64,000 nucleotides of DNA from a virus. Under the pieces are notes generated by a model. It had not been told where the DNA came from and searched no databases. It worked only from the letters and a program-made list of their open reading frames with translations. Below, piece after piece: positions 773 through 3,833 of the stretch; position 1 is the first letter of the stretch; every line of letters starts with the position of its first letter. The DNA lies in IMG/VR virus record IMGVR_UViG_3300045988_154566, positions 6,167 through 70,166 of that record. One strand, 5' to 3'. A program made the position numbers and the translations under genes.

Positions 773-806
773 ATTATAATTATAACAGATTATAAGCAAA
801 TGTCAA
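773..806 (-). promoter_or_regulatory. leftward sigma70-like promoter (TTGACA-16-TATAAT) for gene 486-692
   Basis: Reverse complement of tgtcaa at 801-806 and of attata at 779-784. Conserved leader GATAACAAATGAGATTG lies at 742-758 on the minus strand. Confidence 0.45.
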
Positions 807-850
807 GTGGTTTTGGGAAAATAAAAAAATTTTTTATTTTGATTTTTCTC

Positions 851-925
851 TTGACAAAAATGCCAAAATGTGATATAATATCAAAATACCGGCGGAGCCG
901 GACGCCCACAGGGCGGTCTTTTTTG
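851..925 (+). promoter_or_regulatory. rightward consensus promoter cassette: TTGACA-17-TATAAT, conserved start-site hairpin CCGGCGGAGCCGG, then hairpin plus T-tract
   Basis: TTGACA at 851-856, TATAAT at 874-879, hairpin at 889-901, CGCCCacagGGCG followed by TCTTTTTT at 903-925. The same cassette recurs at 2396 and 3783. Confidence 0.55.
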
Positions 926-933
926 AGCATAAA

Positions 934-965
934 AAGCTGATGACTATTAGTTTAGTCATCAGCTT
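934..965. terminator. bidirectional hairpin terminator (AAGCTGATGACTA-ttagtt-TAGTCATCAGCTT)
   Basis: Perfect 13-bp inverted repeat. A/T tracts on both sides. Lies just downstream of the minus-strand gene 970-1335. Confidence 0.5.
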
Positions 966-969
966 ACAG

Positions 970-1335
970 CTACTTTTTCTTTCTATGTTTTATCAGCGAT
1001 AGCGAGTATTCATTCTCGCCTATGTTAAAGGTTAATTCTTTCTGCGGATTAGCTGTTTGGACATTACTAATTTTGCCATTCAGTGCCATTCCCTCAAGTA
1101 AGGTTTTTAAACACTCGATAAAATCAACTTTTTCATCATCGAGTTTTACTTCTCGTGGCTTCCGCGGTTTCTTTTCAGCTTCCGCACCCTTAACATAATT
1201 CTTTATTCCCTTAGCTTTGATTTCCATTTCCGCCATTTCCATAGCTTCTTCTTTTGTGACTGGCTCTCCGTCTGCTTCACATTCCTTGAAAATCTTTAAA
1301 GCTAACTTCTCTAAGGCTTCTTTTTTACTATCCAT
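970..1335 (-). CDS. hypothetical K/E-rich small protein
   Basis: ATG start with AAAGAGG ribosome-binding site. Confidence 0.5.
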   Translation of the reverse strand: MDSKKEALEKLALKIFKECEADGEPVTKEEAMEMAEMEIKAKGIKNYVKGAEAEKKPRKPREVKLDDEKVDFIECLKTLLEGMALNGKISNVQTANPQKELTFNIGENEYSLSLIKHRKKK

Positions 1336-1391
1336 GCCCTATACCTCTTTCTTTTAAATTGGGCGGTGTATTTCAACCGCCCATCCGCAGA

Positions 1392-1769
1392 TTAGACAAG
1401 TGAGAAGATTGCCTTGCCCTTTTCCTCTTCTCTCTTTGCAGTGCCATTGGCAACCATAATCTTGAGAAGTGCAACTACTTTCTGATTAGAAAGCGCCTGA
1501 ACCGCTTCATCAGCAGGGAAGTCTTTCATAGCCTTGAGCATAATCTGAGTAGAAGTACCCTTGAAACCGTCAAGGACAACCTTGAGCTTCTCAACCAGTG
1601 CTTCATTAGCCTTAGCTTTCTTATCAGAACCAGCCCCAGCCTTAGCTTTCTTCTTCTCAAGGAGTTCCTTTTCGTGCATAAGATATGTCTTGTACATCTC
1701 ATTATCCTGAATAAATTCCTCATTTAACATAGCCTCGATAACCTGTAACTTTGTAATCTTCTTTTCCAT
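1392..1769 (-). CDS. hypothetical K/E-rich small protein
   Basis: ATG start with GAGGT ribosome-binding site. Hairpin GGGCGGT...ACCGCCC lies downstream at 1347-1370. Confidence 0.5.
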   Translation of the reverse strand: MEKKITKLQVIEAMLNEEFIQDNEMYKTYLMHEKELLEKKKAKAGAGSDKKAKANEALVEKLKVVLDGFKGTSTQIMLKAMKDFPADEAVQALSNQKVVALLKIMVANGTAKREEEKGKAIFSLV

Positions 1770-1881
1770 AATGCAATACCTCGCTTTATTATAATATTTG
1801 AAGCTGATTTTTATTTTTTAATGTGGTCGATTGATGGCTTCCTTTCCTTTCCACATTTATATGATAGCACATTTTATTGCG

Positions 1882-2172
1882 CTAGTCAAGCATAAATAAT
1901 GTCATTCCGGCTATTTCCTTTTCTACCACTTCTAAAGTATCTAAATGAATAGTGGCTCTGACTATCTTCCAACAGCCAGTTTCAAACTTGTTGTGTTCAT
2001 GGCGGCGTGGTAGTCTCTCTGCGGCATGGACTGCACTCTGACAATCTTCAAATACACCATCTATAACATAAGCAACTTGCGTTCCCATGCAATCTAAGTA
2101 TCTCATTACTTTTAAGACATACTTAGTCTCTGTTTTTCTTGGTACATGCTTAGTCTCTGTTCCCATAACCAT
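1882..2172 (-). CDS. hypothetical protein (Cys/His-containing)
   Basis: ATG start. Leftward promoter TTGACA-17-TATAAT lies about 2185-2215, with a poly(A) tract upstream on the minus strand. Confidence 0.45.
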   Translation of the reverse strand: MVMGTETKHVPRKTETKYVLKVMRYLDCMGTQVAYVIDGVFEDCQSAVHAAERLPRRHEHNKFETGCWKIVRATIHLDTLEVVEKEIAGMTLFMLD

Positions 2173-2228
2173 TACTTCCTTTCTATACCCTTATTATATC
2201 ACTTAGGTATCTATTTGTCAAGCATTTC

Positions 2229-2260
2229 TTTTTTTTTTTTTTTTTTTTTTTTTTTTTTTT
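2229..2260. repeat. 32-nt homopolymeric T tract (poly(A) on the minus strand)
   Basis: Seen directly in sequence. Lies upstream of the leftward promoter for 1882-2172 and inside the 5' leader of the leftward cassette transcript. Confidence 0.9.
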
Positions 2261-2330
2261 GTTCGGGTTGTTTAGCAATCTCATTTGTTATCTCCCTTAC
2301 AAGTATCATTATAGCAGACTGCCCCAAAAT

Positions 2331-2446
2331 TGCAATAGTCAAAACTGCACAAGATTTCGGGAAAATTTTTGTGCAACTTTATATCATTTTTCTCTTGACA
2401 AAAAGCGCTAAGTATGCTACAATAGTGAAATACCGGCTTTGCCGGA
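2331..2446 (+). promoter_or_regulatory. divergent promoter cassette 2: operator palindrome TGCACAA-N15-TTGTGCA, rightward TTGACA-17-TACAAT, start-site hairpin CCGGCtttGCCGG
   Basis: Palindrome at 2346-2375. TTGACA at 2396-2401, TACAAT at 2419-2424, hairpin at 2434-2446. Leftward TTGCAA-16-TATAAT with conserved leader at 2276-2292. Confidence 0.5.
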
Positions 2447-2473
2447 CGCGCGCTGCGCGGTCTTTCTGTGACA

Positions 2474-2498
2474 AAAAAAGTAGGCGTTTCCGCCTACT
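2474..2498 (-). terminator. hairpin GTAGGCGtttcCGCCTAC with T-tract on the minus strand; terminator for gene 2494-2679
   Basis: Inverted repeat flanked by A7 on the plus strand, which is T7 on the minus strand. Confidence 0.45.
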
Positions 2499-2679
2499 CT
2501 TCATCTGTATATTCAATATTGAATATTGTTCTGCTTGTATTATCTAGTGCAAGTACATCATCAAAAATTTCATTAAAGCTATATGAATCTAACTCTGCGT
2601 CACTAGAAATTATGTTACAAAATTTTTTAATTACATCATGCTCCGCCTTTGACATTTTAACAGTTCTTACAATATTCAT
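2494..2679 (-). CDS. hypothetical small protein
   Basis: ORF track. Compact tandem arrangement with neighbouring minus-strand genes. Confidence 0.35.
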   Translation of the reverse strand: MNIVRTVKMSKAEHDVIKKFCNIISSDAELDSYSFNEIFDDVLALDNTSRTIFNIEYTDEE

Positions 2680-2683
2680 AATA

Positions 2684-2920
2684 TTATTCCTCCATTTTTC
2701 TTATTTTACATTTAGTATATCCATATTTTTTTAAAACTGTACCTTTCCAGTAGCGTTTCGCGCATATCTTTTCAATTCCTCTCTGTATGATTGGCGCTCT
2801 TTTTTCTTTATCCTTAGATAAATCCATACTAGCGTCCTCTTGTTCATAAGAGACTATACTGGCGACTGGTCTATATTGACCAGTCGTACAAAATAATGTA
2901 ACTTGATAATTTACTAACAT
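2684..2920 (-). CDS. hypothetical small basic protein
   Basis: ORF track. Abuts neighbouring genes. Confidence 0.35.
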   Translation of the reverse strand: MLVNYQVTLFCTTGQYRPVASIVSYEQEDASMDLSKDKEKRAPIIQRGIEKICAKRYWKGTVLKKYGYTKCKIRKMEE

Positions 2921-2922
2921 GA

Positions 2923-3117
2923 TTATTCCTCCTCATACTTATACTTTGTTATAACTTTTTCGTCCTCTTCAGTAACTAGCATACAGTTGCTACCTATTAA
3001 CTCTGCTAACTCACAAGCCTTATGATATACTTCATATGCGGCTTCCATACCAGTTACTCTTGCTATTATTGTTATTCCTAAAATAACCCAATATGTCATA
3101 ATATCAACTCCTTTCAT
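2923..3117 (-). CDS. hypothetical small protein with C-terminal hydrophobic segment
   Basis: ORF track. Confidence 0.35.
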   Translation of the reverse strand: MKGVDIMTYWVILGITIIARVTGMEAAYEVYHKACELAELIGSNCMLVTEEDEKVITKYKYEEE

Positions 3118-3129
3118 TTTAAAATAATA

Positions 3130-3477
3130 TTACAAATATTTATTACATGCCCTTTCAATATCTTGTCTTATTTTTTCTCTATACTTCTTAGGAATAGCTT
3201 TAAAGAACTTTTCCTTATCCTCCGTGGATAATTGCGTATAAAAATATTTAGTCTCATTAGCTGAAATATGGAAAGGATTTACTCCTCTTTTCAGCATAAA
3301 AAGATATGTTCTACTAAAAACAATAGTCTCACTAAATCTTGAGAAAACTGCTTTTCCAAAAGTGAGGATAATTAACTGACCATCTCTCAATTCATAAGTA
3401 TTAACTTTCAATTGAATAAAATCCATAACAATAGCTCCAACAACAAATGCAATAATAATCTTAATCATAAATATCAA
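3130..3477 (-). CDS. hypothetical membrane protein (N-terminal transmembrane segment)
   Basis: ORF track. Hydrophobic N-terminus IIIAFVVGAIVM. Confidence 0.4.
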   Translation of the reverse strand: MIFMIKIIIAFVVGAIVMDFIQLKVNTYELRDGQLIILTFGKAVFSRFSETIVFSRTYLFMLKRGVNPFHISANETKYFYTQLSTEDKEKFFKAIPKKYREKIRQDIERACNKYL

Positions 3478-3489
3478 CTCCTTTCAACT

Positions 3490-3652
3490 AATAATAATCA
3501 TAATAAGATGAACAACTACAATAGCTAGGCTGGCTATTCTTCCATACATAAGTTAAACTATCATCTTCTTCACACTGACTGATTGCCTCTGCCTCTGTCT
3601 CAACTTCCCAACCACAATCTGAACTATCTTCTCTGTTATACACTATCCACAT
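3490..3652 (-). CDS. hypothetical 54-aa acidic Cys-containing protein (below the ORF-track length cutoff)
   Basis: Manual translation: MWIVYNREDSSDCGWEVETEAEAISQCEEDDSLTYVWKNSQPSYCSCSSYYDYY. AAAGGAG ribosome-binding site 7 nt upstream. Confidence 0.4.
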
Positions 3653-3733
3653 AATATCAATCTCCTTTCAAGTGGGTACTTCTTACTTCTCTATTATAAT
3701 ACCATGTCAAGGGTAGAATTGCAAGTGACAAAA

Positions 3734-3833
3734 TGCACAATATTTTGGGATAATGTTTGTGCAATATGTCAACTTTTTTCCCTTGACAAAAATCCTAAAA
3801 GGTGGTATAATAGGCAAATTCCGGCGGGGCCGG
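3734..3833 (+). promoter_or_regulatory. promoter cassette 3: operator palindrome, TTGACA-17-TATAAT, start-site hairpin CCGGCgggGCCGG
   Basis: Palindrome at 3734-3763. TTGACA at 3783-3788, TATAAT at 3806-3811, hairpin at 3821-3833. Confidence 0.5.

Follow-up and report, generated by a model that had tools for sequence, protein, structure and literature searches.

The early (host-takeover) arm of a large uncultured phage carries, between its leftward operons, repeated intergenic cassettes in which a perfect or near-perfect host-type promoter points back against the preceding operon and begins its predicted RNA with a hairpin rich in guanine and cytosine (GC). The cassettes were analyzed in a stretch of 64,000 nucleotides of viral DNA (IMG/VR record IMGVR_UViG_3300045988_154566, positions 6,167 to 70,166; hereafter the window, numbered from its first letter), in which three cassettes and several related units were located (Table 1), and they were compared with 45 related loci, 661 kb in total (hereafter the family; single loci carry L numbers). 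Tentatively, and with a likelihood judged to fall somewhat short of even, the cassettes are interpreted as inter-operon modules resembling the promoter-early stem-loop (PeSL) cassettes of T4-type phages, equipped with a phased regulator site of the phi29 p4 kind, two classes of leftward promoter, and a hairpin-capped counter-transcription unit.

Hairpin-first promoters facing the early operons

The pattern TTGACA-N14-TGNTAYAAT was matched four times in the 64 kb, against 0.00 in shuffled sequences, and dozens of such promoters are present in relatives; the three near-perfect rightward promoters proposed in a first-pass annotation of the window were recovered with consensus sequences or one base off. 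The conserved hairpin that had been placed behind each of them was likewise recovered, 8-9 nt past the -10 box and with the exact form CCGGC-N3-GCCGGACG at 889, 2433, and 3821 (3 matches against 0.01 expected). In nine paralogues and orthologues the stem of this first hairpin (H1) is invariant and its loop variable. In cassettes 1 and 2 a second hairpin (H2) with a 5-bp GC stem follows H1 after a single A; among the copies, compensatory changes occur in two of the five pairs of its stem, with 100% of cells paired. H2 and the T-run behind it are predicted to end the cassette 1 transcript after about 40 nt, as the first-pass annotation had stated, and the same arrangement is present in cassette 2. 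Neither H2 nor a T-run was found in cassette 3, whose predicted transcript enters a repeat array. In the comparison with relatives, H2 with its T-run was particular to the clade of the source phage.

Five leftward operons were recognized in the window, each ending opposite a rightward hairpin unit. The units with long hairpins at 5443-5473 and 6900-6931, of the form AATGCGGTGCGCTT-loop-AAGCGCGCCG, were additional to those annotated before; transcription from the former is uncertain, its promoter being poor. Clusters of a TAGTC/GACTA motif lie upstream of both long-hairpin units (5300-5440 and 6836-6895) and may be sites for a further protein. The sequence CCGGC-AGA-GCCGG also recurs at 22966-22978, past the stop codon of the open reading frame (ORF) 21993-22958, with neither a promoter before it nor a T-run after it.

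For the family, non-redundant promoters with an extended -10 box were collected from the early arms (123 rightward and 262 leftward). A strong hairpin within the first 45 nt was found at 76 of the rightward and 18 of the leftward promoters (p = 2e-30), the mean fold energy of these 45 nt being -13.2 versus -2.8 kcal/mol and the GC content of positions +5 to +40 being 55% versus 31%, whereas a ribosome site with a start codon was present at 11% of the rightward versus 69% of the leftward promoters. The hairpin mostly starts 7-9 nt past the -10 box, corresponding to RNA positions of about +1 to +3. In most relatives the stems are 8-14 bp long, and their sequences are unrelated between paralogues and genomes yet always complementary, which indicates that the structure and position of the hairpin, and not its sequence, are conserved in the family. 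The sole recurring sequence frame among the hairpins of relatives was a loose AAATTTCGG...CCG(C/A)C, and the minimal CCGGC-N3-GCCGG hairpin is the form of the clade to which the source phage belongs. The hairpins had been suggested to be cis-acting RNA elements; a sequence-specific element of the nut type is unlikely because only the presence and position of the hairpin are conserved among relatives. A 5′-terminal protective or structural hairpin fits better.

The T content of the 8 nt past the hairpin was 1.3 on the plus strand and 3.1, approximately background, on the minus strand, where at least five T were counted at 19 of 74 units. With this lack of T-richness on both strands, the family hairpins do not look like canonical terminators in either direction. 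A rightward terminator within 60 nt was found at 9 of the 74 hairpin promoters, nearly all in the clade of the source phage, and on this basis the usual transcript in the family is predicted to be long, untranslated, and antisense to the upstream early operon that it enters. Such overlap is predicted for cassette 3 and for 88% of the family units, whereas in cassettes 1 and 2 the predicted transcripts end short of any gene; the earlier description of the rightward transcripts as antisense to early genes thus holds for their direction and for cassette 3, but not for the overlap in the other two cassettes.

A palindrome phased to divergent promoters

The palindrome TGCACAA-N16-TTGTGCA was matched exactly three times in the window (0.00 expected), at cassettes 2 and 3 and at a fourth site. 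The first-pass annotation had seen the inverted repeat at two cassettes and at the fourth site, but its spacer of 15 bp had to be corrected to 16 bp, a search with N15 being empty. In the family, 63 sites with an N16 spacer were found at no more than one mismatch, whereas other spacings from N13 to N19 gave 0-8. The central motif of the spacer, TTTTGGGAAAAT, also lies within the spacer of many family palindromes. A scan of the viral collection for the exact palindrome gave many contigs among the matches listed, partly at chance level, and a literature search for the TGCACAA/TTGTGCA motif gave nothing relevant.

Palindrome and hairpin promoter occur together. Among the rightward promoters beside a palindrome, 30 of 31 are perfect and 29 of 31 have a hairpin; a palindrome was found at 29 of 76 hairpin promoters versus 2 of 47 rightward promoters without a hairpin (p = 1e-5), and the counts of both elements per genome are correlated (rho = 0.64, p = 4e-4). 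Neither was found in L014, as in Enterococcus phage EF1, whose group shares the layout of the early arm and lacks both palindrome and reverse hairpin promoters in the 14 kb examined.

The distance from the palindrome to the leftward -35 box is 9-10 bp in 35 of 65 non-redundant sites, and that to the rightward -35 box is 19-20 bp (23 sites) or 9-10 bp (10 sites). The palindrome is thus upstream of both -35 boxes and overlaps neither core promoter. Its centre falls near -59.5 or -69.5, so that its spacing from both divergent promoters changes by one helical turn at a time. Because of this position outside the core promoters, the geometry fits a class-I or phi29-p4-type factor and not an occluding repressor. 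The palindrome is predicted, from its conservation, to be a family-wide protein-binding site.

The leftward promoters adjoining a site in the window (cassettes 2 and 3 and the fourth site) have TTGCAA or TTGTAA as -35 box, and that of cassette 1, which is without palindrome arms, has TTGACA. In the family, a perfect -35 box was found in 5 of 22 site-adjoining leftward promoters versus 163 of 240 without a site (p = 8e-5). This weakness of the -35 box beside the site suggests, on correlative grounds, that those leftward promoters are activated, and it suggests two early promoter classes, autonomous and factor-dependent. Of the repressor-controlled early switch proposed before, the conserved, phased site is retained, and the occluding repressor is not, since the site lies outside the core promoters and the weak leftward -35 boxes suggest activation.

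Annotation disclosed no regulator, and as a candidate for the binding protein the product of the leftward gene 1392-1769 was considered. Its family was found in 20 of the loci, often as two paralogues, and also in Enterococcus phage EF1. An AlphaFold2 model (predicted local distance difference test score, 89) consists of a long helix and a C-terminal winged helix, and Foldseek matched it to the winged-helix proteins viral F-93, the Fur DNA-binding domain, AspA, and YodB, profile matches to the PDB being weak. The protein could bind the palindrome or the CTAAC-N4-GTTAG arrays described below, and is offered as a lead only.

The leader common to the leftward promoters of cassettes 1 and 2, as noted in the first-pass annotation, was confirmed as an exactly repeated 17-mer. 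Six related genomes contain 16 copies of it, in every case with a leftward promoter on one side and a further leftward promoter or a gene on the other. The element can be written GATAACAA(ATG/CCG/ATA)AGATTGAAAAC (window, L008, L043, L009, and L041), where it always stands between two leftward promoters in tandem, upstream of the second by 23-32 bp. Because the ATG varies, the 17-mer is judged to be non-coding; it is also not phased. At the start of the leftward RNA of cassette 1, right before the 17-mer, there is a small hairpin, TGTTC-AAGG-GAACA. An uninterrupted tract of about 40 T at 2230-2270 (A40 in the leftward transcript) separates the leader of cassette 2 from the next promoter; A9 stands at the orthologous place in L043, and the tract is either a homopolymer expansion or an assembly artefact.

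Table 1. Positions of the elements discussed in the text (window numbering)
Feature	Position	Strand	Remarks
17-mer leader GATAACAAATGAGATTG, cassette 1	742-758	-	Exact repeat of 2276-2292
Leftward promoter, cassette 1	779-806	-	TTGACA-16-TATAAT (12/12); no adjoining palindrome arms
TTTTGGGAAAAT, central motif of palindrome spacer	811-822		Kept in cassette 1 without TGCACAA arms (alignment)
Rightward promoter, cassette 1	851-879	+	TTGACA-17-TATAAT, extended TG; predicted start near 886
H1, cassette 1	889-901	+	CCGGC-GGA-GCCGG; 9 nt past -10 box, 5′ end of predicted RNA
H2 and T-run, cassette 1	903-924	+	CGCCC-ACA-GGGCG (stem 903-915), then GTCTTTTTT; predicted intrinsic terminator
Predicted intrinsic terminator, leftward operon (genes 1392-1769 and 970-1335)	934-965	-	13-bp stem, then T-run on minus strand
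Early gene, long-helix and winged-helix protein (model)	1392-1769	-	Most conserved early-arm family
Second, downstream leftward promoter, cassette 2	2193-2221	-	TTGACA-17-TATAAT; predicted to drive gene 1882-2172
17-mer leader, cassette 2	2276-2292	-	Also junction of 430-bp insertion relative to L008
Leftward promoter, cassette 2	2308-2335	-	TTGCAA-16-TATAAT (weak -35); 9-10 bp from palindrome
Palindrome TGCACAA-N16-TTGTGCA, cassette 2	2346-2375		Exact match
Rightward promoter, cassette 2	2395-2423	+	TTGACA-17-TACAAT, extended TG; -35 is 19 bp from palindrome
H1 and H2, cassette 2	2433-2468	+	CCGGC-TTT-GCCGG, then CGCGC-GCT-GCGCG and GTCTTTCTG (H2 part 2447-2468)
Predicted terminator, leftward operon 3652-2494	2480-2497	-	GTAGGCGGAAACGCCTAC and T7 on minus strand
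Leftward promoter, cassette 3	3696-3724	-	TTGCAA-17-TATTAT (weak); 9 bp from palindrome
Palindrome TGCACAA-N16-TTGTGCA, cassette 3	3734-3763		Exact match
Rightward promoter, cassette 3	3783-3811	+	TTGACA-17-TATAAT, extended TG
H1, cassette 3	3820-3834	+	TCCGGC-GGG-GCCGGA; rival fold GGCGGG...CCCGCC
CTAAC-N4-GTTAG array	3863-3996		20/40-bp phasing; directly past unterminated cassette 3 promoter; 95% identical to L008
Weak promoter-like site and long GC hairpin	5407-5473 (hairpin 5443-5473)	+	TTGAAA-18-AATAGG; hairpin z = -3.7
Second CTAAC-N4-GTTAG array	5483-5596		Past hairpin unit at 5443
Leftward promoter, fourth site	6658-6686	-	TTGTAA-17-TATTAT (weak -35); 9 bp from palindrome
Palindrome TGCACAA-N16-TTGTGCA, fourth site	6696-6725		Exact match
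Rightward promoter and long GC hairpin	6865-6931 (hairpin 6900-6931)	+	TTGAAA-18-TATAGT, moderate; family-wide hairpin class

Exchange of early genes at the cassettes

The cassettes are 87-95% identical to those of L008, versus 72-92% for the flanking genes. L043 is without an equivalent of window positions 2461-3717, and at the junction it has a hybrid cassette whose left part is identical to cassette 2 and whose right part is identical to cassette 3, the crossover falling within the spacer of the palindrome; by this comparison, recombination between cassettes has taken place. Relative to L008, the window has 430 bp extra, comprising gene 1882-2172 with its own promoter and the T40 tract, with the junction at the leader 17-mer. 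Early genes are patchily distributed among relatives.

Proposed mechanism

In the favored interpretation, the cassettes would be copies of a composite module separating the leftward operons of the early arm. From right to left, the module would consist of the terminator of the upstream operon, the GC hairpin, the back-pointing sigma-A promoter, the 30-bp two-fold-symmetric palindrome, with a gap of 19-20 bp to the rightward -35 box and of 9 bp to the leftward one, and the next leftward promoter, often trailed by the conserved 17-mer and a second promoter. A dimeric protein of the phage or the host may bind on one face of the helix, upstream of both polymerases, in the manner of phi29 p4 or a class-I factor, and would help the weak leftward promoter while holding or modulating the perfect rightward one, so that the regulator-dependent leftward promoters would create a delayed-early class of operons. 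The rightward promoter would serve as a counter-transcription unit, the 5′-terminal hairpin shielding its non-coding RNA from 5′-end-dependent decay. In most relatives the antisense RNA would dampen or shut off the upstream early operon and insulate neighbouring operons; in the source phage two of the three copies would be cut to about 40 nt by the second hairpin and U-run, and their main role might be that of boundaries occupied by polymerase, from which a short stable RNA is released. Crossover between the repeats may in addition reshuffle early gene modules, as it does at the PeSLs of T4-type phages.

Several points weigh against this interpretation. Start sites, terminators, and protein binding are all predicted. 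Termination at about 40 nt in two of the three copies is odd if antisense transcription is the purpose, and it would seem costly for perfect promoters to fire into the early operons of their own phage as soon as it enters the cell, unless some restraint, here assumed, is in place. Comparison of G.U with A.C pairs in the hairpins (43 versus 38, p = 0.63) and of fold energies gave no strand signal, and a DNA-level (cruciform) role or a role in the leftward transcripts is possible. In relatives L010 (670-763), L011, L052, L047, L049, L027, and L044, paired perfect promoters face each other across the GC hairpin with 25-48 bp between their -10 boxes, which precludes simultaneous binding by two polymerases; this facing second promoter is not accounted for by the model. 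The 1392-1769 family, finally, is also present in palindrome-free genomes and has no consistent position beside palindromes.

A bolder form of the same proposal is that a family-wide counter-transcription system is at work, in which a perfect host promoter, phased to a regulator site, fires a hairpin-capped non-coding RNA against each early operon, starting at its 3′ end, either as a programmed timer or shut-off device for host-takeover genes or as a source of abundant decoy RNAs, for example against a host defence aimed at RNA or polymerase. This form is regarded as rather unlikely.

Alternative explanations

The short hairpin RNA might itself be the product: a transcript of about 40 nt with two hairpins, synthesized in large amounts from three to five consensus promoters, that would capture a host protein (such as a nuclease, a defence sensor, or RNA polymerase) as a decoy or sponge. 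This is thought unlikely, even though the promoters are perfect and without a ribosome site, cassettes 1 and 2, like the X cassette of relatives, have a predicted terminator about 40 nt on, the nine H1 copies differ in the loop but not in the stem, and the cassettes are better conserved than the adjoining genes. Across the family the hairpin sequence is unconserved and 88% of the units are without a nearby rightward terminator, so a defined small RNA is not the conserved feature, and neither the loops nor the single-stranded parts are long or constant enough for a seed. Searches for known RNA families and tRNAs gave nothing at the Rfam gathering level, the matches at E <= 1 being spurious and confined to the palindromic array. 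The separate idea of an RNA anti-CRISPR or solitary repeat of a clustered regularly interspaced short palindromic repeat (CRISPR) system was rejected after an exact-pattern scan of 185,579 genomes for AAATNCCGGCNNNGCCGGACG, which gave scattered single matches and no arrays among the matches listed; the missing Rfam match and the absence of a CRISPR-repeat-like array among those matches also count against the decoy.

The cassettes could instead be ordinary boundary elements, whose hairpins are back-up terminators for leftward read-through and whose rightward promoters are functionless by-products of duplicated, recombining promoter cassettes of the PeSL kind. On the minus strand H1 is followed by TATTTTGA and is labelled terminator-like by a terminator scan, every unit lies directly downstream of a leftward operon terminator, the cassettes do recombine, and the stem-loop of PeSLs terminates upstream transcription (PMC2839356). 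Nevertheless, a low probability is assigned to this explanation, for the minus-strand T content past the hairpin is at background across the family (3.1 of 8, with at least five T at 19 of 74), and the rightward -35 box, spacer, TG, and -10 box are kept perfect, at fixed distances to hairpin and palindrome, despite a marker identity of 50-60%; a neutral by-product would be unlikely to persist in this way.

Another explanation starts from the arrays of the 14-bp palindrome CTAAC-N4-GTTAG, of which nine sites were counted in the window against 1.7 expected, none of them outside the two arrays. The sites are exactly 20 or 40 bp apart. Each array stands just past a rightward hairpin promoter without a terminator and is followed by very AT-rich DNA, and arrays are also present in L008, L043, L028/L029, L035, and L041. 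By their layout, they look like iterons or centromere-like sites, and the rightward promoters might feed replication or partition sites, the arrays being iteron-like origins that need transcriptional activation or an RNA primer. The position of both arrays immediately past terminator-less rightward units, their restriction to these places in the 64 kb, their recurrence in relatives with 95% conservation, and the orientation of all rightward promoters toward the bulk of the genome would agree with this. It is considered quite improbable, however, as most rightward units in the window and in relatives are not trailed by an array, immediate termination is predicted for cassettes 1 and 2, no initiator of replication is connected with the arrays, and the 5443 unit has a poor promoter.

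An antitermination device of the nut, put, or Q type, in which the hairpins or a factor bound to the palindrome make polymerase resistant to terminators so that rightward transcription crosses and silences the early arm and reaches the sigma-like gene 7603 and the late genes, is very improbable. The units are co-oriented with the sigma-like and structural genes; a strong constitutive promoter with a short terminated transcript is the pattern of lambda PR'-6S, and two stem-loops one base apart recall HK022 put. Unlike in the lambda N/nut and HK022 put systems, the H1 stem is invariant only within the clade of the source phage, the loops vary, and the hairpins of relatives, including their paralogues, are unrelated in sequence and loop. 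Most units have no terminator to overcome, and no N or Q homologue was detected among the early ORFs. The units differ from lambda Q/PR'-6S in lying 4-7 kb from the late genes and antisense to early genes, and the late genes have promoters of their own, with near-consensus promoters for the sigma-like and portal genes at 7544 and 13262.

A DNA-hairpin promoter for a virion polymerase of the N4 kind, suggested by the 5-bp stem and 3-nt loop of H1, was also considered and rejected; the ORF of 3081 amino acids (aa) encodes a tape measure, and a giant protein resembling a polymerase was not found.

Relation to described systems

PeSLs were described from T4-type phages (Arbiol et al. 2010, PMC2839356; Comeau et al. 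2014, PMC4122927). Like them, the cassettes described here are short repeated intergenic units with a consensus host-type early promoter and a GC stem-loop, are concentrated in hyperplastic regions of small ORFans, and recombine so that gene modules are added or removed, as in the L043 hybrid. In PeSLs, however, the promoter is co-directional with the downstream ORF and the cassette ends in the Shine-Dalgarno sequence and start codon of that ORF, whereas here the hairpin promoter is counter-directional and without a ribosome site; an extra divergent promoter and a phased regulator site are present, and the phage is predicted to have a Firmicute host and a siphovirus-like virion.

In phi29, p4 sites of the form CTTTTT-15 bp-AAAATG lie between promoters A2c and A3, and p4 activates A3, which has a poor -35 box (PMC3100819). 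The likeness to this switch (PMC3100819, PMC1904284) comprises inverted arms of 6-7 bp, 15-16 bp apart, with A/T tracts, between divergent promoters for host sigma-A, a poor -35 box in the promoter that depends (here putatively) on the factor, and a position from which one bound dimer could affect two polymerases. The arms themselves are unrelated, and the gap to the -35 box is nearly always 9-10 or 19-20 bp here, whereas p4 sites 1 and 3 overlap the -35 box. No homologue of p4 or p6 was found here, and the module stands at every early operon boundary rather than once as in phi29.

Phage cis-antisense RNAs and convergent promoters are known from lambda oop, P22 sar, and the face-to-face pR/pL of phage 186. 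They share with the present units a promoter opposing the neighbouring unit, an untranslated RNA, and possible transcriptional interference, but are single, gene-specific, and part of temperate switches, whereas here one unit stands at the 3′ end of each early operon of a large, probably lytic phage, with a predicted RNA that always begins with the GC hairpin and, in the clade of the source phage, is predicted to be cut before it overlaps a gene. Stabilizing 5′-terminal stem-loops are known from the ermC and aprE leaders of Bacillus and from the 5′ hairpin of ompA in E. coli. There, too, the 5′ end of the transcript is only a few nucleotides away from a stable hairpin, corresponding to 7-9 nt past the -10 box here; the known examples stabilize mRNAs, whereas the hairpins described here are predicted to cap non-coding RNAs.

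In large lytic phages of Gram-positive gut bacteria, the host-takeover regions have hardly been studied. The present comparison provides for one family a conserved cis-regulatory grammar, made up of the operator sequence with its exact spacing and phasing, the two classes of promoter, and the hairpin-bearing reverse promoters, together with evidence for cassettes that drive modular gene exchange and with testable predictions of an early/delayed-early switch. If the reverse units were a true shut-off or decoy-RNA system, they would be a new phage means to time or protect early expression and a regulatory principle not described for phage early regions, and could furnish compact, strong, regulated promoter and insulator parts for Firmicutes.

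Phage and genome context

The window (GC content, 31.6%) is filled with small leftward ORFs at positions 1-7500, and rightward genes begin at 7603. The early-arm ORFs gave zero matches in Pfam or PHROG, and their content differs strongly between relatives. The rightward block runs from the sigma-like gene through an interrupted terminase, the portal, and the tape measure to tail genes, and farther to the right there are leftward genes for a dUTPase, a RuvC-like protein, an anaerobic ribonucleotide reductase, and a GIY-YIG protein. Judged by this gene content, the window represents the early arm and the structural region of a large phage, siphovirus-like and with an anaerobic Firmicute as host. 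The source is an uncultured gut phage of about 145 kb, probably lytic.

The first rightward gene, 7603-8685, is assigned to the PHROG category "sigma factor" and encodes a protein with a cysteine-rich C-terminal tail and a weak endonuclease-VII-family match, without a Pfam or PDB sequence match; it serves as conserved marker for the whole phage family. Two IMG/VR contigs (145 and 150 kb) have a sigma-like protein of 98% identity, and more than 40 further contigs have one of 50-63%. Family genomes span about 120-150 kb and encode a tape measure of 3081 aa. Among cultured phages, the closest relatives are Enterococcus phages EF1, EF5, and VRE9 (134-142 kb; 40% identity in the sigma-like protein), and more distant ones are Brevibacillus phage Sundance, C. 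difficile phage phiCD211, and Geobacillus phage E3.

The large contigs L008, L016, L023, L038, L051, and L009 stop 3.5-12 kb upstream of the sigma-like gene, within the early arm, either where assemblies are broken by the repeated cassettes or at true genome ends; true ends there would bear on whether the reverse promoters face later-entering DNA. The 1812-aa ORF after the tape measure has nothing related in PHROGs, Pfam, or PDB. The tape measure (PHROG tail length tape measure, E = 2e-57; region 25288-34533) is 3081 aa long, which implies an exceptionally long tail. The large terminase gene is seemingly split into 9996-10619 and 11664-12815 by a homing-endonuclease-like ORF of 246 aa (10927-11667), and an HNH "phage intron" ORF is annotated in the corresponding region of Enterococcus phage EF1.

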